Positions 1 to 63,636 of a DNA stretch of 64,000 bases are shown here, piece by piece. The stretch is from Cenococcum geophilum (taxonomy: Eukaryota): the NCBI GenBank assembly GCA_050273025.1, contig CP158635.1, positions 5,084,001 through 5,148,000 of the forward strand. Reading direction: 5' to 3'. Within the stretch, counting starts at the first letter, position 1, and each line of letters begins with the position of its first letter. Below the pieces are notes generated by a model. It was not told the origin of the DNA. It searched no databases and saw only the letters and a list, made by a program, of their open reading frames with translations. The translations under genes and the position numbers were made by a program.

Positions 1-3000
1 CTAGTATAAAGTAAGCTAGGATAGGTACTTTAGTAAAAGCATCTTTAAGGTCTTAAAACGCCTTCTTATATTTAGGCGTCCAGATAAAACGTAAATATAT
101 TTTTCTTCCTTTCGCGAAAAGGCCCTTTATTCGCATTATTGCTATAAGTAGTACTATAATACCCGAGAAGTTATATATAAATTTTTAATAGAAGTTAGTA
201 AAACTAAGGAAAGCTTATACGTCCTTAATGCAGTTAGGGATTTGCTATTTAGTAATTGTGCGTACCTTCTTAGAGTCCATACGGATACCCTTAGTAGTAA
301 TAATTAGTCTAAGGTATTTTACTTCTATGACTAAGAATTCGTACTTCTTTAAATTAATATAAAGTCCTGCGTCCCTAAGGCGCTATAGGACCTTTTAAAC
401 GTGCTCAGTATGCTTAGAAGGGTCGTCGCTATAAATAAGTATATCGTCTAGGTACGCAGAGCAGAAGTTATTAAGGTAGTCCTATAAGGCGTTATTAATA
501 TAGCTTTAGAAGCTGCCTAGGCCGTTATATACGCTAAAGGGCATAACGGTATATTTAAATTAGCTAAAGCGTAATACAAATACGGTTTTCTATTCGTCAC
601 CTTCCCGTATTTAGAGGCGGTTAAAGGCGGCGATAATATTAAGCTTGGTATAGATTTTAGCTTGGCTAAGCCGCTTAAGAGTCTTATATATAAGCGGTAT
701 AGGGTATTAGTTCTTAATTATAATAGCGTTAAGTCCTCTATAGTTAACGCAGAATTAAATACTTCCTCCTAGCTTCTTAGCAAGGAGGATAGGGGCGGCT
801 GCTAGGGATATACTAGGACAAATAAACCCTTTATTAAGGTGCTCGTTAATATATTTTTTAACAACTAGAAGTTCGTCTTTTAATATTAGGTAAGGTCTCT
901 TATAGGGTAGCGTTTTTCCTTATTTAATATTAATAGTATAGTCGTTAGGTTAATATAGGGGGAGTATATCTACGCTCTTTTATAAGCATATATTAATAAA
1001 GTTATAATACCTCTTAGGGAGGAGCTTACGGAGTTCCTTATTAGTAAGTCCTTTTTTAAGCTTTATAAACTTCTTAAAGTCTAAAGGTAAAAGTCTATAG
1101 AGTTCTACGGGGGCATCGTTTTCTAAAAGGTTAACTATATCTATCCTATTACTGTAAAGGACGTAGTCCTATTCTTTATTAAGCTTATATAGTCATAATT
1201 AGGAGGCTACGGTAATGGTCTAGCCTTTCCTATATACTATGCAGTAGAAGGCCGCGGCACTTACATAGTAGTAATTAGTCGTAGGTAGAGTAATAAGGGG
1301 TTCCTTAGGTTAGTATCCTAGGGAGTAGATAAAGGCGGCTAGGCTATATCCTAGGCAAGTCTCTCTACAGTATTTAGAGTTAAAGGTTACTTCTCTCTTT
1401 TTCCAGTTAATGGCGGGGTTGTATTATTTAAGCTAGTTTATTCTAAGGATAATAGGGTAGTTAGTAAGTAGTATAATATAGGCCTAGAGCTCTTCCTGGT
1501 ACCTGTTTATATCTAGGTAGAGTTATACCATATAGGTAATCTTCTATGCGGTATAACTACCGTTAGCGAGTTATAGGGCGCGGGCTTTAGTAAGGGGTAA
1601 GGTAGGTAGGTTATAAGTACGTATAAATTAAGTATCTACAAATTTATTAGTAGCTCCGCAATTAATTATAGAACGGCTTTTATATTATTTTTTAGCAGTA
1701 ATTCCTATTATAGGTAAAACTATCTATTTCCGTCTATTTATCTTTACTAAGTTATCTATTAAGCAGGCCGATATATAGATCCCCTTATTATTAGGGCGTC
1801 CTAACCTACGACTTAGGGCTAGGACTTAGCGTTTTCCGTTTCCATATCCAACTCTACCGCTATTACTACGTCTTCGTCTTATACGGTAGTGGTATATAGT
1901 AATATATTTAGTGTCCGGGGCATAGGGTTAGGTATTAGACGGCGGTTACCAAACCTAGCTATTGGGCAGTTTGGGTTCTCGTAATAACAGCCTTCTTAAC
2001 GGCATCTATAGCAGCGCCCCAGTTTCCGGAGTAGCTTACGCTCTCTATCTTAGAGTTTTTATAGAAAAGTTAGTATAGAGAGGTTAATATTAGCTCTAGT
2101 AGTGGCATTTAGGGTAGTAGGCGTTGGTGGCTTAGTATATATAGGTTTAGTAGGTCCCGAGGGCTTCTATAGGGTGGTCTTTAGGCGGAGGTTTATAGTA
2201 GCAATCTGGTTCAGCCGTCATTTAATCTTCCGTAGGGCTGCTACCATATCGTAAACGTCGTTATAATTATAGCTAGCGGCTGTATAACTAAGGCAATAAG
2301 TGACTTTTTTAAGAAGATCTTCTTAGTCTTTAGTATCGTCTTAGGCGAGGACTCCGGTATATTCCTAGAATTTAATATAAAACTTATTAAATAATTTAGT
2401 AGGACTTATCTTTAGGGTATATAGTTTGGCTTAACTAGTGGCTACTAGGTCGTGGTCGCGGTATATTTAGTTAAGGTCATTAAGGACTTCTTAGTGGGAC
2501 TACCACTTTTAGGGACTGCTAGTCTCCTATTAAGCAAAGAGCCTACTAAACGGGATACCCTTTGTTCGCCCGATAATATAGCCAATCTTAGCATCTTCTA
2601 TAGGGAAAAGGCAGGCGCTTTAGGTTAGTTTCTTACAGATTTATATCTTTTAGTGGCTATATTCCTTACGGTCACCCTTAAAGATTAGGGGATTAAGGTA
2701 GCGTATATTAGACCCTATAGTAGCAGTTTAGGTTCGGTCGTTATAGCTTTCGTTATTACCGCTATAGTAGGGGTTCTTATTAGGCGAAGCTGCTTAGCAC
2801 TAACCCTTTATTAAGCGTTAAGTAGGTAAGGTTGCCGGGGGCGTAGAGATATAGGTGGCGTTATATGCAGTAGAGGGGTGTCTAGTATTATTATAAATGT
2901 ACTCGTTAAGCTAAGATTATAGGTATTTAATTATACCCTCTCTTTTAGTAACTGTAGCAATAAGTATAATCTTAGCCTTCTTTAATTATTAGATGTCGCG

Positions 3001-3769
3001 TTTAGACACACAGAGGTTATCTTTAATCTCTTAGCGTATATTATTAGCGAGCGCCTTATAAGCTTATAGGTCTTAGATAATATTATAATTTTAGGCAATA
3101 CGCATCTTAGCTTATATAAGCTTTAGATAGTAGTTCTATAAAAGGCAGTAGTATTTATTAGGTTCTTATGTTACCATTTTTATAAATATCTTAGCGTTTC
3201 GTATCTCGATCTTAATGGGTAGTAGCCCTTTAGCTTATTTGTCCGTAGTTATATAGTTAATAAAAGATAAGACATTGTTAATATCCCCCTCGTTAAGGTC
3301 GTCGTAGTCTTTTAAGCCACTAGGCTTCCTTTTAGGAGTTAAGGCTAGGGCTAATAAATTAAATCCTCCTGGGATTAATTGGCGTTATAGGTTTAATATA
3401 GGTATTGGGTTATTCTTTAAGTTTAATATAATAGCTAGTAAGGAATTTCGTCTTACTATTATGGTTCTTTAGAGGTACAAAGTGGGAGATACGCTGCTTC
3501 TAGTAGCGTCTGTAGTATTGTAGAGACGTAGAGTTGGTTATAGGCTGGGCGTTAGTGAAAAAAAGGCGCAACGTAATGTTATGGGACGTAGGTAATGGCT
3601 ATAAAGCGTATGTATTCGAGGAGTCTATAAGACGTTACGCGATCGATCGTAAGGGTTAAGGGCGTAAGGAGGTGATATACCTACGCGTAGCTGACGTAAG
3701 CTGTACGCGAGGTGTACGTAAGAGCACGGGGCTCTCCTATGGAGGCCCCTGCGGTGGGGTTCCGTGACA
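1..3769 (-). mobile_element. Ty3/Gypsy LTR retrotransposon A (5' LTR, gag, protease, RT; runs off the window start), RIP-degenerate
   Basis: Minus strand reads FCSAYLDDILIYSDD (RT YxDD, ~422-466), protease MIDCGAT (~1650-1675) and gag knuckle GRCYRC..EGC (~1965-2020). LTR at 3577-3769. Inserted into the 5' LTR of element B. Confidence 0.93.
3577..3769 (-). repeat. 5' LTR of Gypsy A
   Basis: Minus strand begins TGTCAC and ends TAACA (RIP form of TGACA). It is followed by the PBS-like TTACGTTGCGCC and then gag. Confidence 0.8.
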
Positions 3770-3887
3770 ATTCCCTTCTCTTCTTTACGCAACGTCTTGT
3801 TCTTAGCAAGAGCTATATACCCTTAGATTTAGATAGAATTTATATTATTCCTTTAAATCTTTCCTAAAGTCTCTCCGCGCCTTTATA
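3770..3887 (+). repeat. 3' part of the 5' LTR of Gypsy B (interrupted by element A)
   Basis: Near-identical to 48568-48685 (attcccttctcttctttacgcaacgtcttgttcttagc...ctctccgcgc). Confidence 0.92.
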
Positions 3888-6800
3888 TTACGTTGCGTTA
3901 ATACTAATACCCTTAAAATAGTAAATAAACTTAAATCCGCCACGATAACTATTATGGCCCTAGTTAGGAAATAAATAACTATAATGCAATAGTCCTTTAT
4001 AGATGCCTTAGCCTAATAACGAACTATACTAGAAGCTTAGTATTAGTAATTAATTAAAGCAATATATAAAGAACTCTATAACGCTAAAGTACTTATATTA
4101 GAGACCCTAATAGTAACACCTATAAATAAAATTAAAATAACTATATATAAACCCAACCTATTAAATATAAACCCTAAACTAGTAATAGCAGCTTAACCTA
4201 CATTTATAATAAACCTAATACCTACTATGAAATCTAAAAAGCTCCCTAACCTTCTAATATTTAATAAAAATTAAAATAACCTACGTCCCTTTATAACTAA
4301 GCTCCGTTTTAAACTTTTAATAAACTATAACTAATACCCTACTAAAGCTAGTAAGATTAGCTATAGAATGTCTTATTTAAGTAAAAACGCTATACAAACT
4401 ATAGACCTATTCTTCCGTAATAGCACCTTTATTAATTTTAAAATCTTTATCTCTCTACTAAAATAAATGTATAATAACACCAGCCGTAAATATATAGCTG
4501 TTACTAAACTTAAAAACCTATAATAACAGAACCGAGACTTTACTAGCTTCTTTTTAGAATTTTTAGGCCTTATTAGTAAACTAGATTAGAATAAAGCCGC
4601 TAAAGTTACTGCTCTCTGTTAAGCTATTTTAGATAAAATTAGAGTATAGTTAATAGGTAAAGAACTGCTAAAGGACTTACCTAAATTTACTATAATATGC
4701 CAATAAATTAATAAGGACCTTTAATATACTAAATAGACTTATTTCCTAAAGCTAACTATACCTCACGTTTAAAACTCTACAAAACTAATATATACCCTAA
4801 AGCGTGACCCGCCTTTAAGACCTAAAAGCCCTATATATAACCCTATAGACTTTAACGCTACTTAATCCTATATACCCTTAGGAACTAATAAATAAAGAAT
4901 ATAAGCCATAAATAGAGAATGTTTTAAATATGGAAAAAAGGGATATATTTAAAGGGATTACTAAACTTACCCTTTTAAAAAGGTCCGCTGTAACTCCTCT
5001 TAGTTTTTAAGTCGCACTTATTTTATAAATTATACTTAGTCGCTATAAAGTATCTTACCTTTAGTTAATTTAGAAAATAAATTATCCTAGGGCTAAGTCG
5101 CGCCTTAAAATAAAAAGTAGAAGAGTATAAGTATCTAGGCTTTTCTAGCGCTAATATATAATATAACTCCCTTAATATACTTAGCGAAATTTAAATACTT
5201 AGAAAATAGAAGGAAGTATAAATCCTTATAAATAGCGGAGCTACTAGTATAGGCTTTATTAATATAAACTACACAAAAACTTAACGCTTAAATTTAAATA
5301 AACTTAATAAGCCCTAAGGCCTATAAGGCTTTAATAGTAAGCCTTTAATATACGGTAAACTAATATACTATATTTTTATAAAGATGTGGATAGGCAAATA
5401 CCTTAAATATATTTCCCTATTTATAATACCCTTAAAGTATTATAAGGTAATACTTAGATATAAATAGCTGAAATAACACAACCCTTTAATTAGCTGAGTT
5501 AAAGAAACACTAAAATTCCGTATAACCTACTACTAAAGTTATTACTTAAAACACTACTTGCCCTATAACTACTAATTGCGGTAAAGAATGCGAAGATAAT
5601 ATATTAAAACCCCTTAAAATTTATATAGTATAAGCCGCACCCTTTTACTTATTAGTAAGAAAACGAGACTATAAGATCTTTACTATAACACTAGAACATA
5701 TTAAGAAAGCGTTAAAACTAAAGTAATATATTAACCCCTAACCTCTTATACCTAAAGAATATTATAATTTAATTAATATATTTAAAAAACAATTTACAGA
5801 CGAACTATCCCCGTATTAAGACGAGTATAATTTTAAGATAGAACTTAAACCTAGTATAATACTAAAATTCGGCCCATTATATGGTATATTATAAGAAGAG
5901 CTACTTATAATATAATAATACCTTAAAGAGCACCTAGAGAAAGGATTTATTTACCCTAGTTAATTACTATTTGCCTTGCTTATACTATTTATTAAAAAAC
6001 CTAAAAAAGGCTTAAGGTTCTATATTAATTATTAAGCCTTAAATACGATTATGATTTAAAACTAATATCTAATTTCTCTACTTTAAGAAATACTTAACCG
6101 CTTAGTAAAAGTATAATACTTTATAAAGCTTAACGTAGTTACTGCCTTTAATTAAATCCGTATTTATAAAGGAGATAAAAAGTATATAGCTTTCTATATA
6201 TAATAGGGACTTTTTAAATACCTAGTAATGCTATTTAGTATAAAAAACGGTTCTAGTATATTTTAGTAATACGTTAACAATGCACTTCACGAATTCCTTA
6301 ATATATTTGTTACTATATATATTAATAATATCTTAATTTACTTATCTTTACTTTCTAAGCATTAAAAGCACATTTAAATAGTCCTTAAATACTTATAAGA
6401 CGCGGGCTTATAATATAATATTAAGAAATAATAATAATAATTCATTGCTTAACGTCCGATTTGGATCCCTATTGGGCCTACGCAGACTACTCCTTATTTA
6501 TATATAGGGAGAAAACTCAACTTAAGAAAGACTTAACTTAAGAAAACCCCATAATCTATCTCCTTGCCTCTTAGGACTCGCCTATAAGGCGCCTATAAGG
6601 CGCCTATAAGTCACCTATAATGCTTTTACTACCTTACTTTTTAACCTCTTTAGGAACTACTGCTGCCGTAACTAGCCTATAGACGCGCTAGTATTGTATA
6701 CTTTACTCTACTACTATAGAGTCATTAGGGGGCGCTCGTTGCTCGCCCCCCCCGCCCTTTATTGTTATTTCCTTTGCGACCCAGAACTGGTTTAGTATAT

Positions 6801-8207
6801 TTTAGCTAATAAGCTATTAGGTAACCGCCTTAAGGCCTTTTTATATTAAAAGCAGTGTCTTATAGTTCTCTATGCTAGCTACTAAGAGTATTACTTCTTG
6901 GTTAGTGCGTAAGGGGTATAATAGTATTACGTGTTTTGGTATCTATCTTAGCCAGCTATATTTGTATCTTAGGCTACCTACTAGGACACCTACCTAGTAG
7001 AGCCAGTCTTTTAGTCCTATTATTCCTGTTCTTAAAAGCGTTACTATTATATTTTCTACCTTTATTAGGCCTTCTTGGAGCCCTAGGGTGTTTACCCCCT
7101 ATAGCGTTAACTATGCTACGGCTTGGGTTCCTCTTGCCTTAGTTAGCCTCTATACCTTTAACTCTTATATACCTCTCTAGCGTTAGTCCAGCCAGTATTA
7201 TATTATAGTAGATGGTTTTCTAGCGTTCTTTTATACTCTACTTTAGCTCCTTTCTCTCTCTTACTGTTGTCCTTACTAGCCTTTTATATGTCTCTCTTTC
7301 TCCTTTATATAGGCCTAGGCCCTAAAGTAGCACTATTTTTCTTTTGCTTTCTTTACCTGTTTCTCTAATATATCTTCCCTACTTTAGGGTTATTAGTTTG
7401 TTCTCCTATAAGGCGCCCTAAGGTCCCTCTATAGTTTATTTAGGCGTATCTTAATATACTTTATAATATTAAAGTTATGTTCCTTTTACGCCCTTTATAT
7501 TGCAGCGGCTTTAATATATAGTTATAGGGGGAGAATATTAGCTTCCTTCTTAAGTAGAGCTATAGCCGTTTGCTTATATCCGCCTATTATACTCTAAAGG
7601 TAGGCTATTTAGTAGGTAGTTATATATTAGCTAGTAATATAGTAGAGTTTAATATACCTACTTATTTAAGCCTCTACCCTAGTTTTCTAGTGCTTTAGTC
7701 CTAGTCTATAAGCAGTTAGCTGCCACCACCACTCGTATAGGGAATTTCACTATTCTTTTAAATATCTTATAACGGGTTATTAGCCTAAGTACTAGTTTAC
7801 CCCCCAGTAGTCTGTATAAGAGTCTCCTCCTAAAGTTAGTACGCTTTTACACAGCTTAAGAGCCTTCTATAGCCTCTAGTTTTACGCCTTTTCTATTATT
7901 TTTGCCGGTATAGGCATAAGCTGCCATTTCCAGGGGTTATAACTCCCGTCTTATACGCCTACTAGCGTAGTCCTATAAAGGCGTTATAGCTATATCCTAT
8001 AATATAGACTTAGGCGCACTTTCTATAGTTAGGCCTAGCCAAAACCTTTCTGCCTAAGTAACTTCTGTTTACTCCTTAAGTATATCTCGCTAGCGTACCG
8101 CCCTAGAGATAAACGGTTCCGTCTATTAATATACCAACACGAGCATCCGTTTTCTTAAGCTATATAGTAGTCTTTCTAGCTAGGACGTAATCCTACCTAC
8201 CTACTAG

Positions 8208-10579
8208 TAGGGGTAAGAATTACAGTGTATCTTTGGAAGGTGATGGTAAGCTTGGCGTATTGAGCGTATTTTTGCTCAATACTGTGACATTGGGTATTTT
8301 TCAGGGGCTGGTGGCAGTTCACGATATACGCCCAGTGTGATATAAAATACGCTAAAACACGTGACTGTACGGACCTTCTGCAATGTCAAACGCGCTTAAT
8401 GCGCTTAACGCGCATTATTAAATTATTAACTACCACCTCTACCACTATATTAATCCGTAATAAGGCTTTTAAATAACAAAGTATTGCTAGCGTTTAAGTC
8501 TTTTATACGTCCTAATTGATCGGTAAGTTCCTTATAGCCCCTGTAGGCCTAGAGCTAACTTTTCTACTAGTGTAATTATATGCGCTGCTTATACTGCGGT
8601 AACGAGGCTATAAAAAATACCTCCTGCCAATTTAACCACCTTATATGCTGCTAAAGTTATCTAAACGCCTGTAAGGCTAAAGGTAAAGTAACTCCTGCTA
8701 CTTAAAAGGCTTCTAAGGCCTACAATAACTCTACCGATAAACCTACTTAGAAAAAGCTGAAGACGAATTCCACCACCTATACGCGTCAACGCCTTTTAGA
8801 AAAGAAGGCTACATGCATAATTATATATAACGCTCGCCCGTTTTAGCTGTTTTAAGATACAGCCTCGTAGGACTTTATATTAAGTCTTAATAATTTATTT
8901 AAGATACCTAATAAAACAACGTTTGCTAGAACACTACTTAAGGAGATATACGCTACAACTATAGAGGATGTTAAGCAGTATATTAGCACCTAAAAATACC
9001 TTAACTTTATTATTGACAAGTCTAGCAATATACTCCACAAGCGTGTAATTAACCTCTATTATAATACACCAAATAGTGCACTTTATATTAAATTAGAAGT
9101 GGTAGATCTAGGGGCAAAATGTAATGTAGAATGGATATTTAGATAGGTTAGAAAGGAGATTAAGTATCTACTTGGTTCGTAAGGTATATTAAAACTTACC
9201 TAAGCTTAGTGCTAAATAATGTAGATTCGGACTTTAAGCGTGTTAACTCCCTTGCCACCGACACTTGCTTAACTATATAATCCCTATGGGAACTTATATA
9301 TAAAGATGAGGATCTTCAGCACGTATTCACCGTTCCTTGCGACAGCTATAGCCTATAGCTGCTTATAAAGGATATACTTAAACGGATCTCTTGGTTTAAA
9401 ATAGTGTTCGCTAACGCCTAGAGTATATTAACGAAATTCCGTATATCACCAAAACAGCTCTCTATACTGCGGCGCCACTAGAAGACGAAGAAAGCCTTCT
9501 CTGCTGCAGTTATTACACATTAGGGTACTTAGCTGGCTATTGCGTAATTAGTAAAGGATAATTAGGAGGCTATTAAGGCGTACTGCCTTAATTAAGATGT
9601 AGACGTTAATGCAGCATTTTGAGGTCAAGCTATCGCGGGACCCTTTTTTTAACAGCTCGGCCACTTCCTATACCTCTTTAAGCCTCTTTATGAGGCTCAG
9701 AAGATGTCAGAATTAGACCGCGCACGCCTTAGATATGTCTTTGGACGCTAGCAATCTATCTACCAGCATTTCTGTAACGCTAGCGTCGCATATCCTTAGG
9801 CGAAGGAGGTGCTTAATTAGGTGTTCCACCCGCGTATAGCTAAACAGGTAGTTCCTATATATTGGGCTGCTTACTACCTCGACCCTGCTTACGTAGGTTC
9901 AGAAATAAGCGTTAAATGTTAAAAGCAGGTCCTTAATTTTATTCGTAAGCATATGCCGGCCAATCGGGAGGCTGCTGCCTTGCAGTCATACTTCAGCTAC
10001 TACTATAAGGAGGACGAATTTGCTTCTACCAATTACTGTTAGTAGTATATAAATAAGCCAAACTTATTTTGGTCCTCTATAAGAGTTACTACACCCAATT
10101 TAGCTGATTTAGCGCACCATCTATATTTTATATAGGCCAATTTAGTGCCCTCCGAGCGCTTATTTAGTATAGTAAAGCTTATATACTCCCGAACAAGGGC
10201 CTCTACCAATCCTAAACGGGTAGATATACAGACGGCCGTTTATATCAACTAGCGGGTATTTAATTATCATGGGGGCAAGTATTACGAACCGTTTAATTGG
10301 AACTAGCTAGATAAGCAGGAGCGTCTTAAATAGGAGAACTTAATTATTAAGCATAAGTATGTAGAGGCTAATAGGCGCGTCAGTGAGGTAGCGAATTGAT
10401 ATTATATATATTTGACCCCTACGTATTAATTTAATTGATTACCAAAAGTTCGCAACACCAAGTCTATATCTAAAATCCTATATATTTTATATAGTGGTAG
10501 TAATTTTGAATTAATACACGTATTTTAGTAAGCAGAGCTTATGACAATATAACATGTAATTTTAGAGACCCTAGCCCTA
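8208..10579 (+). mobile_element. hAT DNA transposon nested in the LINE
   Basis: 8-bp TSD CCTACTAG at 8200-8207 and 10580-10587. Short imperfect TIRs (TAGGGGTA / TAGGGCTA, each followed by AATTACA). Contains a transposase remnant. Confidence 0.9.
8447..10399 (+). pseudogene. hAT transposase, RIP-inactivated
   Basis: BED-like MRCLYCG (~8580), FIIDKSS (~9006), LATDTC (~9251), VPCDS(H)SLQLLIKDI (CxxH, ~9332), IT(R)WGT (~9511), hATC motif ANSVPSER.FS (~10136). Probable GT-AG intron ~9179-9224. Confidence 0.88.
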
Positions 10580-11694
10580 CCTACTAGATGTACTAAGGGT
10601 TAGAGCCTAGCTAAAGGGTAAGGTCTTTAGAGCTAGCAGTAGCTATTACGTACTACGCCCCATAGGAGGTTCCCGTTTTGCGTTGCCTATAAGAGTCTTC
10701 TTATAATAGGCCGACCGTATTTTATAGGAGAGGGGCTATAAAGACACTAGGTCCCGTACCAGACGACTTACTCCCCCCTTTCCTACTAACTAAGCTTATA
10801 TCCCCCCCTTTTATAAGCTGGCCTATATCTCTAACTATTAAAACCTCGTTTAACTAGCCTGTGTTTCCCCTATAGCCTCCCCCATATATATATATTAGGT
10901 TATATACACTACACCTATTAAGACCCTCTTATAAGTCGCCTTATATATATACGCATTAGGTTACATGCACTACGCCTATTAAGACCCTCCTATAAGTTAT
11001 TTATGAGTCAACTATAGGTTAACTGTAAGTTAACTAAGTCGTATGCCATAGGGCCGTTAAAGCTGGCCTATATTTCCGCTGCCTAGAGCTTTGCCCGTAT
11101 TTCCACCTTATTAAGCCGTCTAGTCGCCATCACGTCGCCGTCACGTCGCTGTCGCGTTGCTGTTGTCTAGGTCGCGCGTACTACGCCTATTAAGACCCTC
11201 CTCTAAGTTACTTAGGTATACTAGATACCAAATAGGCTCTTATAAAGGGGCCTTAATAAGTTCTTTAGGTAGGGCCTTAATAAGTTCTTCGCGGTGGCCT
11301 TAGGGCCTTAATAAGTTTTATATAAAGTATCTATAACGCGTTAACCTTAATAAGTTCTTATAAAAAGAGGTTCCCTACGCCCTTGCCGTATCCTCTTAAT
11401 CTTAGAGCTAGTGTAAGCCTAAGGGTGTCCTATTGTACGCCTAGGGCGCGTCCACGTTAACTAGCTAAGTAAGGCCAGTTTCGGGCCTGGCTGCGAGCCA
11501 GGTAGTCGTACGTCGGGCGGTTTTTGTATCCTAGTTTCCCTTAATGGCCCCCCTAGATAGTATGGCAGGAGCCCTAAGTAGGGGCAGTAGGACTCCTAGT
11601 GTTGTTAAGGGCGATATACGCGTCGCGGGCTCAATACTACAGAGTCGCAACACCAGCGCGCTGCGCGCGCTGCGACGGCTCTCCTCTATCGCTT

Positions 11695-11779
11695 CTGCAC
11701 TTAGCCATTATAAGGAATGATTTCCCGATAATGTTTCCACCCGCGGCGACGTAGACGCGTACAGTAGGGCTTTGCGGGC
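11695..11779 (-). ncRNA. HDV-like self-cleaving ribozyme at the LINE 5' end (RIP-damaged)
   Basis: Minus strand: P1 GCCCGC(A), J1/2 AAGCCCUA, P2 CUGUAC, P3 GCG, L3 UCUACGU, P3' CGC, P1' CGCGGGU, GG (P1.1), AAA, P4 CAUUAU...AUAAUG, J4/2 GCUAA, P2' GUGCAG. G1-U wobble present, and G1 abuts the TSD. Confidence 0.85.
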
Positions 11780-13959
11780 AATATTAAGAAATATAAGTTC
11801 TATATATCTAAAGCTATATACTTAGGCCTAATTATATCCTATAACGGAATTAAAATAAACTTTAAAAAAATCGCTGTAATTATAAACTAGGAAAGTCCTA
11901 GTAGTATATAAAATATCTAAGGATTTCTAGAATTTGCAAATTTCTGCTGTTAATTTATTAATTACTTTTTAAAAATTATTTAGCTATTAATAAACTTAAT
12001 AAAAAAGAATATAAGATTTAAATGGACTACTAAATATAAATAAGCTTTTAATAACCTAAAACATTATTTTATAACTACCCTAATTTTTACCTACTTTAAT
12101 CTGGACCTTAAATATATCGTTAAAATAGACTTATCTAATTATGCACTAGGAGGAGTATTATTACAATATAATAAGAATAGCGAGCTACGCCCAGTAGCCT
12201 TTTTCTCCCAGAAACTTACCCCTACTAAATTAAACTATAAAATATATAATAAGAAACTACTTATAATTATTAGATGCTTTAAATAAAAGCGTCTAAAACT
12301 TAAAGGATTATTGTTCCTAATACGCGTATTAATAGACTATAAAAACTTATAGTACTTTATAACTATAAAATAATTAATATAGCGCTAAATTCGTTAGGCC
12401 GAATACCTCTTATAATTTAACTTTAAGATTATATACTAACCTAGTAAACTTAATTAAAAGCCTAACTTATTAATAAAATAATTATAGGACTTACTTATAA
12501 ACGCCTCTAATAAACGGATTATAAATTAATTGTAAATTCTACTGCCCCCTAAACGCTTTAAGAAACTACGCCCTATATTTTTAAACGCGGAGCTTAATAA
12601 AAATGAATTAGAAATTAATAAGTGGGATATAGAAATTAATAAATTAATAGAGCACGAATATAAGAACAACCCCTAAATAGTAGATATAATAAAAGCAATT
12701 TAAATAGGGAAACGGCAATATAAGGATATTACACTTACTAAATGCGAAATCTGTAATAATTAGTTATACTATTAATAGAAAATAGTAGTCCTAAATTCCA
12801 AACCCTTACAATTTAAGATACTTAAATTTATACACAATTCCCTTATAGTAGGGCATCCTGGCCATATAAAGACCTATAAGATTATTTAATAAGTATATTA
12901 CTAGCCTATAATATATAACTATATATAAAAATACGTTTAAGTATATAAAATGTGTGTATATAGGAAGACCTCTTATATAAAGAAGTAAGGGGTACTTTAA
13001 CCGTTAATAATTCTAATATAAAGATAGCGAGATATCTTAATTAACTTTATAGTTAATCTACCTAATAGTAATAAGTTTACGAATATTATAGTAGTTATTA
13101 ACCGTCTTATAAAAATGCGATATATAATTCCTATAGACTTAATTAATATAATATTAGTAGCTAAATGTTTTATTAAGTACGTATTTAGGCTATATAGACT
13201 TTTTAATTTAATAATATCCGACTACGGAAGCTAGTTTGTTTTAGACTTCCAATAAGCCTTATATAAATAATTAAGTATATAAACACGACTCTTAACTATA
13301 TTTTATTTAAAGATAGATAGTTAAACTAAAATTATAAACGCAATTATAGAATAATACCTATAAATATACTACTCCTACCTATAAGATAACTGGGAAAAGT
13401 GGCTACCTTTAGCTAAGTTTATTGCAAATAATATAAAAAACAAATTAATAGGTATAATACTGTTTTACGTAACCTACGGATAAGGCCCTTAACTTAGATT
13501 TAAACTATAACCTATAATTAATATAATAGGACCTATAATTAAAAGGATTTAACTAATTAACGCATATAACTTTACTCCATTAAAAAAGAAAATAGAGATC
13601 TAACTGCTGTTTTTAGAGGGTTCTGTCGCCGTTTTTAGAGGTCGCGTTACTAAAACTCCCCGCCGCCCTAAGCCTCTTACTTGCCGGTCTAACGTTAAGC
13701 CTCTTACTTACTTAGCCTGTGCCCCGTTTTTTATAGGTAAACTAGTTTATTTAGAAGTATGACCCTTCTACGCGCCTGACGCTGAACCTATATATACTCT
13801 ATAGCTTTTACCTCTAATCCATTTAACCTAGGCCCCGTTTCTCTTATTCTTTACCCTCCCATTTTCTTAACCCCACATTACTCTCTATATCCTTTCCGCT
13901 GTCACTACCCTAAGTTCTCTTCTAGCTCCCTAAAATGCGGCGCACTTAATTATTAAATT

Positions 13960-57140: not shown

Positions 57141-60100
57141 GTACTATTATAAGATGCCCCTATAATACCTTATATATATCTACCTATTTTTAACTAACTT
57201 AGAAACTAGAGACTAATCATAAGACAGTAATTTAATGGCAATCTATAGTAATCTAACTGCAATCTGCTGCATTCTACTATATTCTACTAAGTTTTACTAA
57301 ATTCTGCTAAGTTCTGTTAGGGCTACTACCTAAATCCTATTCTACTCCTATATATATTAACTAAGTAACTAAGCTAACACTATATACCCTTTCTTCCTAT
57401 TTTCTTACCTTCTTTCCTTATATAATATCTTAACTTTATTACGCAGTTTATATACAAGCTTAATAGTATCTACCTCGCTATATATTATTGCCGCCTATAC
57501 TTATTCTATAATAGCTTATACCTATATTAACGGGAATAATAAAAAGGGGTATAAAACTAGAAGCTATAAAAGGCTTTTACGTTATTAAAAAGTATACTAA
57601 CTTTAGGAGGAAACTTTTATATAGACTACTAGGGGCGGATTAGTGCTTAGGCTAATAACCTATTATAAGATACCCAAGAGAATTGGTAAAAATCTCTATA
57701 TTATTAGTAGTGGCAGCTAACTACTTATAGAAAGCCCTAGGCTATTAGGTTTAGGTAAGGGAAAGCTACTAAAAACCTAGGGTAGAGGCCTAAATAAGTA
57801 GGTATATTAAACTCTACTATATAACTACCTACCTAGCGTAATAAACTTATCAGAGATACGCTATATAAAAACTTAATTAAAAAAATACTTCTAGGAAATT
57901 ACTAATACACTAGTAATAATATTAAAAGCAATGCTAAAGGATATCTAGAGGACTATAAGTAACTACTTAAAAGAATACTACTTAAAAGCCTAGCCTAGTA
58001 AACATGTTTAACGTAAATAGTTAACGTAGTCTGCGGGCCTATGGGTTATGCGGGCCTCCGGGTCACCCCATTTTAAAATCGCGAAAACGTGACGCGTTAC
58101 TTAACTACTACCTTAATAGCTACACCATAACAACAAAATCCCCTTTTTTAAGAAGGTAGACTTATTTTAGCTATTAATGCCTATAATTAAGGCCAATTCT
58201 TAAGTTTCTAATCTGCTGTAATAATATATAATATACCTTTAACTATATCCCAGCGACGTAATAAAGGCATTAAACTAAAACGCGGTTCTATCGCCCTAAA
58301 TTACCGCCTTATACTAGTATAAGAAGAAAGCCTTAAGCAGTGGGTTTTATTAATGGATTAATGCGGTATACCACCTATAATTGCTACCATATGGTAGATA
58401 GCTAGCCTTTTAGCTACTTAGTACGCTGGATTATAACTAGTTAGCGAGTAATAGGTATACAACTTTATTAAGCGCTATAACGACCTATAATCTAAATAAA
58501 ATTGTAAGTATAACTACTAGCGTGCTAAATGCGAGGATCCTATGCTTATTTAGGGCTGGTTTAAGCGTGTTTAAGACATAGTTATATAGTATAGGATTCT
58601 TAATAAGGATATTTAGAATTTTAATAAAACCAACTTTTAGATAGGTGTTATTGCGATTATAAAAGTTATTACTAGAACTAACCGTGCTAGCCGGCCTAGA
58701 ATAGTATAGCTAGGCAATTAAGAATAGGTTATAATTATTAAGTATATTAATACCCTAGGGGTTGCAATTCTATTACTTATTATTTTTAAGGTAGTAATAT
58801 ACTAGGCTACCTAGTATAAGAACGGCATTATACTATATAACTGGTTAATTAGTATTAGCGATAATGGTTAGACAATAAATAAGATTAGCTTAATTTAGCT
58901 ATCTCTATTTTATAAGCATATAAAGGATCGCATGGTTAGCATATATCAGTTACTAGTACTAGATAGCTATAATAGCCATATATTACCTAAATTTAATTAG
59001 TTCTGTCTAGATTATTAAATAGTTGTTCTTTATATACCAGCGCACTTATTATATTTACTATAGTTACTAAATATAGGCTATTTCTTAGCCCTTAAGTAAT
59101 TATACGGACGCCTTATTAAATAGATTATAAGCTATGGTGTTAACTATATTAATAAGTGCAAATTCCTGCCACTATATAGACAGGCTAGGCAGATAGCACT
59201 ACATTAGAATAATATATAGGCAGGATTTACAGCTACTAGCCTTGTTCTATACAGCCCTAATTATATACTGTCGTAGCTATATACTAAATATTAGACACCA
59301 TTACCTTAACGCCGTTTACTATTAAATATATCTTAGATAGCTAAAACGCCTTATAATATTACTAAGCTATAAAGGCAGATAGTCTTACTAAAGCGCTATT
59401 TTAAGTAGCGTATATATAGCCCACCAAGTCTAATAGAACAAGCCCTTAGCCAGCTTATTAAGGGGTGCAAAATAGCAATATTAAGCGCTGTACTGCTTGC
59501 TAGCGAAAATAAGAAGCTACGCATAGAAAACTAGTACTAGAAAAGGAAGAGGGCATAGCCGCGCACGTATATAGCTAGGGGGGGTGTTCTATTAGGAGTA
59601 GAAGGGCTATCTCGTGTATAAGCTGCGGAGGCTTTAGTAGAGGCAGCGGCCGAGCGACCGCAACGAGCACCACGTAAGTACAGTATATGCGCATTAACAG
59701 AACATAATGCACGTACGTGCCCTAGACGTTAAACTAGTAGATAGTAGATAGCTGCACTTAATACAATTATTTATGGTTAAGCAATTTATAATATTTGTTC
59801 TTAGTAGTGGGGTAGGTGACCCGGAGGCCCGTATAACCTATAGACCCGCAGACTACATTACTAGAGGCGGTATAGCTACTTATAGATATAAGAAGGGTAA
59901 GGTAACAGTATAGCGTAATAGGTAAGGCCTACTACTATTAGAGTTATAAGCCCCTAAAGAATAGGCTTAAAAAGACAATAGAGAAGGAGAATAGAAATAG
60001 CTAGCGCTAATTCCTATAGGAAACTATATTAGACCCTACTAAACTATATAACTAGGGACTTTAGTATATATTAAAGTAGAGTAGAAGAGCTATAGGGGAA

Positions 60101-61440
60101 ACGCTAGAAGATCTCTATTTACCTATACTCTACTAAATAAAGTAAGACTAGTATAAATATAATAATAGGAAAAAATTTATATACTAGTAGGAAATAAGGG
60201 ATACTATATAGAAACTCCCTACTAGTAAAGTGGTTAAACTAAATAGGATCTTAAATAACGGAATTAAAGCTATATTAAAAGCGGTAATAATACTACTAGC
60301 TAATACTATAACTATTTATTTTTATAAAGGTAAGCTACTAAATGCTATAAAGAAATAATAATAGTTATCTTATAAAAGGTGAATAAAAAGGACTGTTTCC
60401 TTCTAGGGAGCTACTAACTGGTCGCCCTTAAAAATATACTAAGAAAGGTTTTAGAAAAGATAGTTATAGAATATATATAAGAGGCCGTAGAGGTATAAGG
60501 GTTACTACTATAGATGTAAATAGGCGTAAAAAAGAAACAATTAACCCTTTTAGCCCTTTTTCTAACTACCTCTAGCGTTTAGGCAGTGTAGTAAGCCCGC
60601 CTAAGCTATATAGTATCTATACTAAGCCTAGATATAAGCGGAGCCTTTAACTATATATTATATAAGAGACTTTTATAGATCCTAAGAAATAAAGGCCTAT
60701 TAAATTAGATAATTAAATTTACTTAAGCCTTCTAAATAGGACGCACTACTAAAATAGTATTTAAAGGCTTCGAAAGTAAAATAAGACTAATACCTATAGG
60801 TATCCTATAAGGATTACCCCTACTACTAATCCTATTTCTATTCTTTATATCTAAGCTACTAAGGATATTTAATAGTAACTAAGAAATAGTAGCCTTAGAA
60901 TTTATAGATAATATAAACCTAATTATATAGGGAGATATAGTAGTAAAAAACTGTATTAGGCTAAACTAGGCGTATAATAGGTATATTATATAGGTAAAAT
61001 AATACGGTATTAATTTTATATTAGATAAATACCAGCTTATCTACTTTATAAAAAAAAGAGTAAATAATAATCTAGTATTAACGGTAAATATCTAGGGCTA
61101 TAAAGTAAAACTAGAAATTACCCTTAAGGTCTTAGGGGCCTAAATAAACGCTAAACTAAACTAAAACGTGTATATTATATAGGCGACTTATAAGGAAGCA
61201 GCGGCCTTTATAGCGGCATTATAAATTATAACCTTAACCTAAAGACCCTTATTTAGACACATATGACTACTATATATAGTATTAGTAAGGCTAGCAATAC
61301 TATACGGCGCCTAAATTTAGGTATAGGACTAAATAGTAAAGTATTAGTAAAAAGCTCCCTAGTGCCGCTAGAGAAGCTATAAAACTAACACTTATATAGG
61401 ATTATAGGGGCCTATAAAAGGACACTATAAGCTATAGTTA
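57141..61440 (+). mobile_element. Tad1-like LINE F, internally deleted and 3'-truncated, split by a Fot1-like element
   Basis: ORF1-like sequence at 57530-58023 and 59861-60100. RT motifs KLPTGKA..PD.I, SYRPVALENTL.KVLEK (~60409), SLDISGAFD (~60625), GIPQGSPLSPILFL (~60799), FVDDTNL (~60901), RITGAYKRT (~61398). 5' boundary uncertain. Confidence 0.85.
58024..59858 (+). mobile_element. Fot1/pogo-type Tc1/mariner transposon, full length (1835 bp), RIP-inactivated
   Basis: TA TSD. ~43-bp TIR ACGTAGTCTGCGGGCCTATGGGTTATGCGGGCCTCCGGGTCAC. Transposase ~58116-59740 with NFDET.FQMG (~58617), LVLDGH.SH (~58953), LQ.LDVGCF (~59058) and C-terminal CS.C....HNARTCP. Confidence 0.95.
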
Positions 61441-63636
61441 AACCCCTTTAGTATAATATTTAATTATAATGATATACTTTATATTATAATCTACACCCCT
61501 TAATTAAAGTTTTTTTGGTGTAATATTACAATATACTAACTATTTACAATCTTATTAAGTTTTCCCTACTAAAATCGTTATAACTAGTAGAGATTTTATA
61601 TGGGAGGGACCCTACTTAGCCTGTAAGGTAAATGCCCTATACCCTTTTAGGATACCCGGCCACGTATTAGCCTCTTTTTTCCTACTTATTAATTTAATAC
61701 GTAACTCTATATATAACAATACTATTAGTATTACAATACGGCCGGCCGTACAACCCGCATTATTATAAAGAGTTTTAACTATATACTAGAATGTAAAGTA
61801 GTAGTAATACTACTAGACATATATATAGAAGCAACTACTATATAGAGAGCAACTATAGTATAAAGCTACTTAGTAAAGAAGGAAATATACTAAATATTAG
61901 AATATATATAAGGAGTAAGGGCCCCCTATAGGGGTACTACGCCTAAGCTTATAAGCTAAAAAGCCCTTTAACTATATATAGTAAAGAGAGAATAAAAAAT
62001 ATAGAAGCTATTATAATACTAAGTAAAGACCTAGCGCTACGTTAATAGAGTATTACTATAGTAATAGAGGCTAGGGGTCTACTAGTATAAGTAAAGATTT
62101 ACTATATATATTATAAAATAGATAGATATTAAATAGAAATAACGCTAAAAGAAAGCAGTAAAAGAGTAGAGAGTAACTATATAGAGCACCCTATAGTTAA
62201 TATTAACTCTCCCTCTATATAAAGGATAGATAAAGGCAAAGTTTATAGCTGCATTCTTACTGTAAATAAAAGTCCTAAAACTAAATATATAGCTAGTAAG
62301 TATTTATATCCTAAATACGTATAGATAGCCTAATAGTTCTCTCTTTAGAGTAAATCTTAAAATATAATTAGAGCTAATCTATTAGGCAATTACTTTATAG
62401 TTAGATTTTATTATTAAATTTACCTATATACCTAGCCTATTAATAAGCCTACCTTAGTATCTACTATAAAGCTTTATTACGACCTTTATATTTTCTTTCT
62501 CTTTTCTTTAGATAGGCTATAGTCTAGTAGTAGGTCCTTAGGGTTTATAAGGTGTTATATTCCCTAAAGTATTTACCTTTTTTATCTTTCCCTATTGTTT
62601 TAAAGAAGGATTTAAAGCAGTCTTTTTCTAGCCTTAGTTAGCGAAAAGCTAATTATAGCTTTTTAGGATATATATTCTTAGGGGCTTTAAGAGAAAAGGA
62701 ATAGCCTCCTTTATAGATTCTAGTAGTATTTTTCTTTATCCTTATTCTATTACTAGTTCTTTTTCTCTTACTAGTTTTTCTATATAGGGTCTTTAATTCT
62801 AGTTTATTATATATTTAATCCTATTTCTCTCTCCTATTTTATATACTAGTACTATACTTAATTTACTATCTTTAGAGCTATCTATATAGTATATCTACTA
62901 AGTCCCACTCTAGGGATTCTTATAGATTTTCTACTAGTCTTAGATATTCTTGTATAGCTTCTTCCTTACTACCCCTAGAGATAGAAAAGAATGCAGAAAT
63001 AGGAGGAGACCGCGGTTATTACTAATTTAGAGAAATTCTCTCTATTTTCTAGTTATAAATTAGTTGTTAAACTCTAGACGCTAGAGATAATAGCTGTTTT
63101 TGGCTGTAAAAGGTGCTTTATAGTAGAGTTTTTAGGGCTAGAACTGGAGCTAGAACTAGCTGCTAGTTCGTCTCTATCTTTGTCAATCTCTTCTATATAG
63201 ACCTCCTCGATTGCGTGGTTTTCCTTAAATTTTAGGATTTTAAATGCGTAGCTATTGCAAAGCTTTTCAAATATAATTCTAGGAGGAAAGAGACTATATA
63301 TATAAGAGGGTACCACGAACGGGGTAGACGCCTTCCTTGCTAGTATCTTTTCAAAACAAGCGAACCCTTGCAAAATGGTTGGGCTGTATTATTCTGCTAG
63401 CATACTAGTAGGGAGGGCGTTTGCCCTATACGTGTTACCCCCTTGTATATAGGGTAGGTGATAAGAAGACTGACGGTGATGCTGACGACGATTTATAATT
63501 GTCTCTTTATTGCCACTTAGTCAGTAATAGGTAATAGAAACAGGTGGTGAGTTATAGGGTGATAGGTACGATCTTGGTTGATAGAAAAAATCCTCTAATA
63601 ATACAGAAGCTTCACGTTTACGGTTTTAAGATTACT

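Follow-up and report, generated by a model that had tools for sequence, protein, structure and literature searches.

A putative hepatitis delta virus-like ribozyme heading a non-coding module in a MINE-like composite retroelement of Cenococcum geophilum

Introduction

Self-cleaving ribozymes with the fold of the hepatitis delta virus (HDV) ribozyme have been reported at the 5′ ends of several long interspersed nuclear elements (LINEs), namely R2, RTE, Baggins and L1Tc/NARTc (PMC6765202, PMC8256844, PMC3185411). In the parts of these papers that are drawn on here, the nested double pseudoknot lies within the first ~80-180 nt of the element, the (predicted) cleavage site is the first base of the element, and cleavage is presumed to release the element's RNA out of a longer co-transcript. 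The hosts named in the consulted parts of reviews on HDV-like ribozymes are animals, trypanosomes, a virus and a bacterium, and one such review (PMC8256844) makes no mention of fungi. A separate literature describes chimeric retroelements such as MINE of Magnaporthe, which, in the sections consulted, consists of the non-coding RNA WEIRD followed by a 5′-truncated MGL LINE and has been ascribed to template switching by the reverse transcriptase (RT) (Gogvadze et al., PMC2104539). Here, a composite retroelement is described from a 64,000-nt stretch of Cenococcum geophilum DNA (NCBI GenBank assembly GCA_050273025.1, contig CP158635.1, positions 5,084,001 to 5,148,000 of the forward strand; this whole stretch is called the window), the first 85 nt of which appear to be a dead copy of an HDV-like self-cleaving ribozyme, altered by repeat-induced point mutation (RIP). 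The analysis links the two literatures, that on retrotransposon HDV-like ribozymes and that on MINE-type chimeras. No description of an HDV-like ribozyme in a fungal retroelement or in WEIRD/MINE was found in the literature searched, although an earlier mention is possible.

Results

The HDV-like fold in the window

Hand mapping of the 85 nt read from 11779 to 11695 on the minus strand yields a full HDV-like nested double pseudoknot with P1, P2, P3, P1.1 and P4 in the canonical order (Table 1). This fold had been claimed in an earlier prediction made from the letters of the sequence, and every pairing listed there was found; a folding limited to nested pairs recovered P1, P3 and P4. The three core defects named by the original prediction are likewise real departures from the consensus of 113 family copies, which has G7, C19 and C27, and all three are transitions. 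As anticipated, the predicted cleavage site also lies at the boundary of the target site duplication (TSD), since one copy of the 14-bp repeat occupies 11780-11793 and G1 directly adjoins it.

Aligned copies of the family share with the Rfam models RF00094 and RF02682 the G.U wobble at the P1 cleavage site, a 3-bp P3, the L3 motif UC(C/U)NCGU, the GG for P1.1, the AAC before P4 and the GGCUAA in J4/2. In contrast to the HDV, CPEB3 and F. prausnitzii ribozymes, J1/2 is longer (8 nt) and P4 consists of two parts. The P3-L3-P3′ stretch presumably resembles that of the CPEB3 ribozyme. Judged by its architecture, the 85-nt stretch is read as the remains of an HDV-like self-cleaving ribozyme, a copy mutated by RIP and no longer active.

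The descriptor used for the chance controls was composed after the candidate had been seen and is therefore post hoc. It demanded a P1 of 7 positions with the G.U and at least 6 pairs, a P2 of 5-8 bp, a P3 of 3 bp, a P1.1 of 2 bp and a P4 of at least 4 bp, together with a J1/2 of 0-12 nt, an L3 of UYYNYG plus 1-2 further nt and CNRA in J4/2. This search, which had been proposed along with the prediction, found a single match when both strands of the window were scanned, namely at 11779 on the minus strand, compared with 2 matches per 300 dinucleotide shuffles of the window (~0.007 per window). In 693 kb of related loci, 89 + 3 family matches were found before shuffling and none in 20 shuffles; the descriptor detected no other HDV-like motif in these loci, in which RIP decay could hide one. 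The HDV-like observation is real and well above chance.

For less-mutated copies of the family, RF02682 (HDV-F-prausnitzii) and RF00094 (HDV_ribozyme) were the only ribozyme families reported by Rfam. Their alignments are full-length; P1 begins at G1, and L3, GG, AAC, P4 and GGCUAA are in register. In a first set, the HDV models matched three of four loci, L015 being without a match, with 32.9 bits (E 0.0024) and 31.6 bits (E 0.0049) for RF02682 and 33.2 bits (E 0.048), 31.5 bits and 30.0 bits for RF00094. In a second set, six of 20 loci were matched, the top score being 34.8 bits (E 0.0019). Four weak Rfam matches at E<=10 on 11500-12000 of the window (an sRNA, a CRISPR repeat and snoRNAs) were dismissed as chance. 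By architecture and by model matches below threshold, the family is classified as an HDV-like ribozyme.

Related copies and their common first base

Relatives were gathered from metagenome contigs by means of a 22-nt core pattern, which gave at least 121 matches; the 121 listed comprise 113 family copies, four GC-rich chance matches and four matches without a 30-nt flank, close to the start of the locus. Among the matches listed, 111 of the 113 family copies start at G1 when RIP changes in GCCCGCG are tolerated, and 100 do so exactly. The 30-nt flanks before G1 of these 113 listed copies are unrelated to each other (on average 9.85 of 30 positions identical) and have a GC content of 0.247, so that insertions go into AT-rich, RIP-type DNA. 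The base preceding G1 was A in 56, T in 32, C in 13 and G in 12 of the 113 copies among the matches listed. A further copy, found via the module sequence and independently of the pattern, has the same G1 start. In 13 of 19 complete copies an exact TSD of 13-16 bp stands directly before G1; the remaining ones are blurred by RIP or were misprojected by the script. The equation of the predicted cleavage site with the 5′ end of the element thus stands for the retrotransposed unit, for which it is exact (111 of the 113 listed copies; TSDs in 13 of 19), and falls for the LINE, which is not this unit.

The alignment of the ribozyme region comprised 113 sequences, i.e. the window copy and 112 metagenome copies, with L062 excluded as it is without P4-P2′. 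Cells of the proposed pairs were paired in 93.9% of cases, as opposed to 34-55% when the partners were slid. All 113 copies carry A79 and C76, the position of the catalytic cytosine in J4/2; A78 is retained in at least 90% of them, and these positions lie outside the search pattern. Over 90 distinct rows, the closing pair 1-41 is G.U in 83, A-U in five and other in two.

The window was also compared, at a likeness of at least 80%, with contigs of three DNA runs and one RNA run (X21); the stretch is represented in public runs of two organisms as well as in root and soil metagenomes. In the DNA runs, which represent three isolates, 4,704, 3,016 and 2,826 contigs matched, and numbers in the thousands per run indicate a high-copy family. 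Nearly all differences between these contigs and the window are transitions. Ten contigs in run X1 and 15 in run X7 end at 11779 with differing flanks (agreement ~0.5). Within the window, blastn, nhmmer tiles and a transition-tolerant Smith-Waterman self-comparison revealed no second copy of the ribozyme.

A non-coding module with a fixed 3′ end

The sequence that follows the ribozyme is colinear among the copies over a module of ~1.3-1.85 kb (1,787 nt in the window). In 44 aligned copies the 3′ end of this module is constant and full divergence follows. It reads ...ACTACCTG, i.e. ...AACTCTACTATATAACTACCT(G/A), ...ACTACCT(G/A) or a version altered by a short insertion; the window module ends with ...ATATAACTACCTA, which is the family end ...ACTACCTG with a G>A change. 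In the least-mutated module copies there is no shared open reading frame (ORF), the longest stop-to-stop frames having 90-160 aa and differing between copies. In the module region, Rfam reported no family besides the HDV models, with zero matches at E<=1 on positions 1-2420 of L016. A tRNA-like 3′ end of the module was considered and rejected, as ARAGORN found no tRNA-like gene in four loci. The ribozyme thus appears to head a discrete non-coding module with a fixed 3′ end rather than a LINE.

RNA reads of run X21 almost all have their first mate on the plus strand, which in usual stranded libraries corresponds to minus-strand, i.e. sense, RNA. They extend into the ribozyme, thin out toward 11779 and do not continue beyond it; reads upstream of 11779 would be unmappable because the flank is unique to the window copy. 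Tandem repeats with units of ~53-61 nt and ~24-39 nt lie inside the module at ~10884-11208 and 11248-11361 on the minus strand. Read depth in run X21 was highest over these repeats (75-108 compared with ~26 nearby), a peak that may reflect either multi-mapping or a promoter-like region.

Junctions between the module and LINEs

The partner that follows the module 3′ end was classified for 36 junctions, at least 20 of which are different. One LINE, referred to as LINE-A, is the partner in 22 of them and is entered at many different points: in ORF2 at aa 1, 43, 94, 356, 410, 462, 511-515, 637, 697, 713, 843, 888 and 934, and in addition at several positions of the 3′ untranslated region (UTR) and in the LINE 5′ region. 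Four junctions lead into a second LINE lineage with an ORF2 that is about 36-41% identical to the first. Partial module copies are the partner in three (L041, L016 and L077), all of which end at the module 3′ end; L077 contains two such partial copies in series before the LINE part. The partners of the remaining seven junctions were not identified, and there was no convincing solo module among the 36. These comparisons suggest that RTs from two LINE lineages share one 5′ partner. Fusions of the module to the second lineage were noted at the loci L002, L024, L035, L042 and L045.

The LINE-side sequence matches that of intact LINE copies, beginning with the base next to the junction. It opens with CC in ~15 of 20 junctions, and the module ends with ...CCTG, which suggests a 2-nt microhomology or a pause site. 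The window and L025 share the site of the junction (7613|7612 in the window). Splicing was rejected as the source of the junctions, since no AG precedes the junction points in the intact LINE.

At least seven LINE copies are devoid of the module and have 5′ ends of their own behind unrelated flanks. Four of them start with GGAGCTCTTGCTG... (L052, L054, L073 and L035) and three with ACTTTTGGAGCTC... (L077, L027 and L118); the copy in L073 is ~5.5 kb long and has its own 11-bp TSD. The ribozyme accordingly does not open the RT-encoding element, and its original assignment as the LINE's own 5′ end was not borne out, given that it heads a non-coding module and that module-less LINE copies start otherwise. 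Between the TSD and the conserved LINE start there are 5 extra bases in L073 and 15 in L054 (n=2), while module starts adjoin the TSD exactly.

The LINE part of L029 contains an RT domain (RVT_1, E 9.5e-15). The read-through ORF2 of L029 has ~74% identity to P0001, a public intact ORF2 of 1,026 aa with an apurinic/apyrimidinic endonuclease (APE) domain (PF03372/PF14529) and an RT domain (RVT_1). An RNase H domain after the RT is typical of the Tad1 clade. No RNase H (PF00075) was found in P0001 or P0002 at E<=0.1, and the more distant P0007 has PF00075 with E 8.8e-14. With APE and RT present and RNase H not matched in P0001 at this threshold, the label "Tad1-like" given originally to the LINE could not be established.

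Discussion

Proposed origin of the composites

Taken together, it is probable that the ribozyme heads a ~1.8-kb non-coding RNA module that has been joined to truncated LINEs by RT template switching. In living copies, the ribozyme would cut the host transcript just 5′ of G1, and cleavage would give the module RNA a precise 5′-OH end independently of a promoter. The RT of a LINE, encoded together with APE by ORF2, would begin target-primed reverse transcription on its own RNA and then, in most cases as soon as a CC has been copied, take up the module RNA as its new template at the 3′ end (...ACUACCUG). It would copy the module up to the ribozyme-made 5′ end, and the product would consist of the full module, a 5′-truncated LINE and a (TAA/TTA)n tail, flanked by a TSD of 13-16 bp.

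From the comparison of the copies we infer self-cleavage, template switching, a module RNA that exists in free form and the way in which its 3′ end arises. The ribozyme is read as a device that defines the 5′ end because a complete 5′ RNA, a variable LINE truncation, serial partial copies and a single TSD occur together. Module TSDs would adjoin G1 without extra bases because the RT runs to the exact end made by the ribozyme; with two LINE junctions compared, the exact contact between module and TSD fits an uncapped, ribozyme-made module end.

Evidence against the proposed origin and alternative explanations

A number of results weigh against this scenario. Rfam reported no HDV family in the window copy, neither at gathering nor at E<=10 on 11500-12000. 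All HDV scores of the other copies (28-35 bits) stayed below gathering, the best being 34.8 compared with 44 for RF02682 and 33.2 compared with 50 for RF00094, and 14 of the 20 loci of the second set as well as L015 and L016 had no HDV match. Minimum free energy (MFE) z-scores of -1.64, -0.89 (window copy) and -0.55 were not significant, the tool leaving pseudoknots unscored. Covariation is weak and confounded by RIP, as the copies are close relatives and their changes are RIP transitions: changes on both sides were found in only four pairs, a number reached by 307 of 500 shuffles, and the 22 cells changed on both sides belong mostly to one P4 pair. The relatives are all metagenome contigs from few data sets chosen by a single pattern, and the conservation of nt 22-43 is no evidence because the search pattern fixed these positions. 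Run X21 showed no pile of RNA 5′ ends at G1, and a free module RNA, its gene and the mode of its 3′-end formation were not seen. Finally, the junctions shared by L017/L020, L067/L071 and window/L025 could mean that ready-made composites amplify. The sub-gathering scores, the lack of convincing covariation and the MFE values would also suit a fortuitous fold or one with another role, the constant G1 then being the transcription start of the module at an internal promoter or initiator. This explanation is considered very improbable: the descriptor expectation is ~0.007 matches per window, two independent HDV models of Rfam are aligned over their full length, placing P1 at G1 and the core elements in register, the catalytic C and A79 are invariant, and the motif occupies the one position known for HDV-like ribozymes of retroelements.

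If the fold is accepted as a ribozyme, it could form the 5′ terminus of the LINE itself, like the ribozymes of R2, RTE and L1Tc, with the module as 5′ UTR and the short copies as internal deletions of a ~7-kb element. Such an arrangement is suggested by L029 and L062, in which the module is followed by a near-complete LINE in the same orientation, as well as by the failure to find a solo module either here or in the consulted parts of the MINE paper (PMC2104539). However, the module-LINE joins of these two loci are ~27 nt apart, and the copies all have one and the same base as left breakpoint, with right breakpoints spread over the whole LINE. The same module is also joined to the second lineage (ORF2 ~40% identical), the serial partial module copies all stop at the module 3′ end, and the module-less LINE copies stand behind unrelated flanks, one with its own TSD; this origin therefore appears unlikely. 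According to a further explanation, the composites themselves are non-autonomous retrotransposons which are trimmed by the ribozyme and mobilised in trans via the LINE 3′ end, most copies arising by amplification. Their transcription would rely on read-through or on a promoter within the module, and the ribozyme would serve the composite, as in NARTc beside L1Tc. In the consulted parts of the literature, L1Tc and NARTc share a 5′ HDV-like ribozyme that doubles as an internal promoter (PMC8256844), and many MINE chimeras are transcribed (PMC2104539). Moreover, the same junction recurs at separate loci whose flanks differ (L017/L020; L064/L058/L049; window/L025), and every composite has kept the LINE 3′ UTR and tail. 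Given these recurring junctions, amplification of composites already formed is a probable contributor, and it complements template switching rather than excluding it. As the source of most copies it is doubtful at best, since at least 20 of the 36 junctions are different and copies with the same junction differ in the P4 subtype of their modules (..CTGGAATCCTATTCC.. in L067 and ..CAGGAAATCGTTCC.. in L071), a difference that is better explained by recurrent switching at hot spots.

Comparison with known systems

By its architecture, the composite in the window can be classified as a MINE-like chimeric retroelement. As far as the sections of the MINE paper drawn on here go (PMC2104539), MINE and the present family have in common that a complete non-coding 5′ part precedes LINE 3′ parts of differing length and that chimeras of several parts occur; a solo 5′ part has been found in neither, and both have preferred switch sites and transcribed chimeras. 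TSDs measure 10-20 bp in MINE and 13-16 bp in the present family (14 bp in the window). WEIRD has a length of 1.1 kb, whereas the module has 1.3-1.85 kb and starts with an HDV-like ribozyme, a word that is absent from the MINE paper. The switch consensus of MINE is GCC*A/U with GCC left uncopied, whereas here the LINE side opens with CC, a similar but not identical preference. As in U6-L1 and comparable chimeric retrogenes of mammals, described in the same sections and built on a small cellular RNA, an RNA would have been copied in full 5′ of a truncated LINE by template switching, with flanking TSDs. Unlike in U6-L1, the 5′ partner is no known housekeeping RNA according to Rfam and ARAGORN, and it occurs in more than 100 copies.

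With R2, RTE, Baggins and L1Tc/NARTc, the module shares the location of the nested double pseudoknot at the very start of the element and the coincidence of the (predicted) cleavage site with the first base. In contrast to R2, RTE and L1Tc, the ribozyme heads a non-coding module, and the LINE's own 5′ ends are without a ribozyme. The host, a RIP-bearing fungus, also differs from those named in the reviews consulted.

The proposed origin offers a candidate answer to the question of how the 5′ partner of a MINE-type chimera obtains an exact 5′ end when no gene or promoter has been found for it. As a tentative and rather speculative generalization, ribozyme-headed hitchhiker RNAs could form a class of WEIRD-type, promoter-independent non-coding RNAs that excise themselves from any read-through transcript by an HDV-like ribozyme and whose 3′ end (...CCUG, with CC microhomology) attracts the RTs of more than one LINE lineage instead of mimicking a LINE 3′ end. 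If this generalization is true, the WEIRD RNA of Magnaporthe should begin with the same kind of ribozyme, and HDV-like ribozymes would mark a third route of non-autonomous retrotransposition, based on template switching. For annotation, a high-copy "LINE" family in RIP-rich fungal DNA is really composite, and consensus tools would mis-build such composites. Since the family is abundant (at least 113 metagenome copies) and transcribed, assays are practical.

The composite insertion in the window

The interval 6431-11779 is a single composite that was hit later by a hAT transposon and by RIP (Table 1). The whole insert has 5,349 bp, or 2,969 nt without the hAT element, and of the latter the first 1,787 nt are common to most copies and the last 1,182 nt are the LINE part. 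Other copies have an extra 0.1-4.4 kb between the module and the sequence corresponding to these last 1,182 nt. The ORF2 remnant corresponds to aa 890-1026 of P0001, with 63% identity over 137 aa (tblastn).

The window is heavily RIP-mutated, with a GC content of ~0.25-0.43, and there is no ORF of at least 80 aa within 3000-13000. Pfam searches of minus-strand read-through frames (4000-11694, 6400-11694 and thirty 900-nt tiles) found no RT or APE, because the window copy retains only the last 137 codons of ORF2 and the 3′ UTR. A hAT identity of the 5.35-kb insert as a whole was rejected, as there are no terminal inverted repeats (TIRs) at 6431/11779, the TSD has 14 bp, and the true hAT element is nested inside with its own TIRs and 8-bp TSD. 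The plus strand of the latter encodes a transposase remnant (PF05699, hAT dimerisation, E 8e-4; DUF659, E 0.019; Pfam), whose C-terminal region is legible when stops are read through. Contigs of other copies cross the hAT site uninterrupted (loose ends at 10589).

Table 1. Features of the composite insertion and of the putative ribozyme at its 5′ end. Positions refer to the window; nt are counted from G1 of the module.
Feature	Window position	Strand	Module nt	Remarks
TSD, 5′ side of composite	11780..11793			AATATTAAGAAATA (+ strand); exact 14-bp repeat of 6417-6430
Putative RIP-decayed HDV-like ribozyme	11695..11779	(-)	first 85 nt	predicted cleavage 5′ of G1 (11779)
P1	11779-11773 / 11745-11739	(-)	1-7 with 35-41	G1.U41 wobble, A7xC35 mismatch
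P2	11764-11759 / 11700-11695	(-)	16-21 with 80-85	U19.G82 wobble
P3		(-)	22-24 with 32-34	GCG/CGC
L3		(-)	25-31	UCUACGU
P1.1		(-)	42-43	GG, can pair with L3 nt 26-27
P4, two-part		(-)	47-52 with 69-74	inner stem 54-58 with 63-67
J4/2		(-)	75-79	GCUAA; C76 = 11704
Module part 1, non-coding	10588..11694	(-)	86-1192	more than 40 related copies are colinear with it; all minus frames free of Pfam domains
hAT TSD, 8 bp	8200-8207 and 10580-10587			CCTACTAG
Nested hAT DNA transposon, RIP-mutated	8208..10579	(+)		specific to window copy; TIR TAGGGG.../TAGGGC..., exact 8-bp TSD
Module part 2, non-coding	7613..8207	(-)	1193-1787	junction alignment of 44 copies
5′-truncated LINE 3′ part	6431..7612	(-)		ORF2 remnant 7605-7195, 3′ UTR, (TTA)n tail 6441-6431
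TSD, 3′ side of composite	6417..6430			AATATTAAGAAATA (+ strand); exact 14-bp repeat

Elsewhere in the window, the self-comparison gave one related stretch only, 57508-57831; it lies in a partial module copy at 57508-57839 on the plus strand, which covers module nt ~1473-1787 and ends with ...AACTCTACTATATAACTACCTA before unrelated sequence follows. It probably belongs to another composite in the opposite orientation. A remnant of a different LINE ORF2 is located 2.5 kb downstream of it, at 60349-61442 on the plus strand, and has 36% identity to P0001 and P0002 over ~320 aa.

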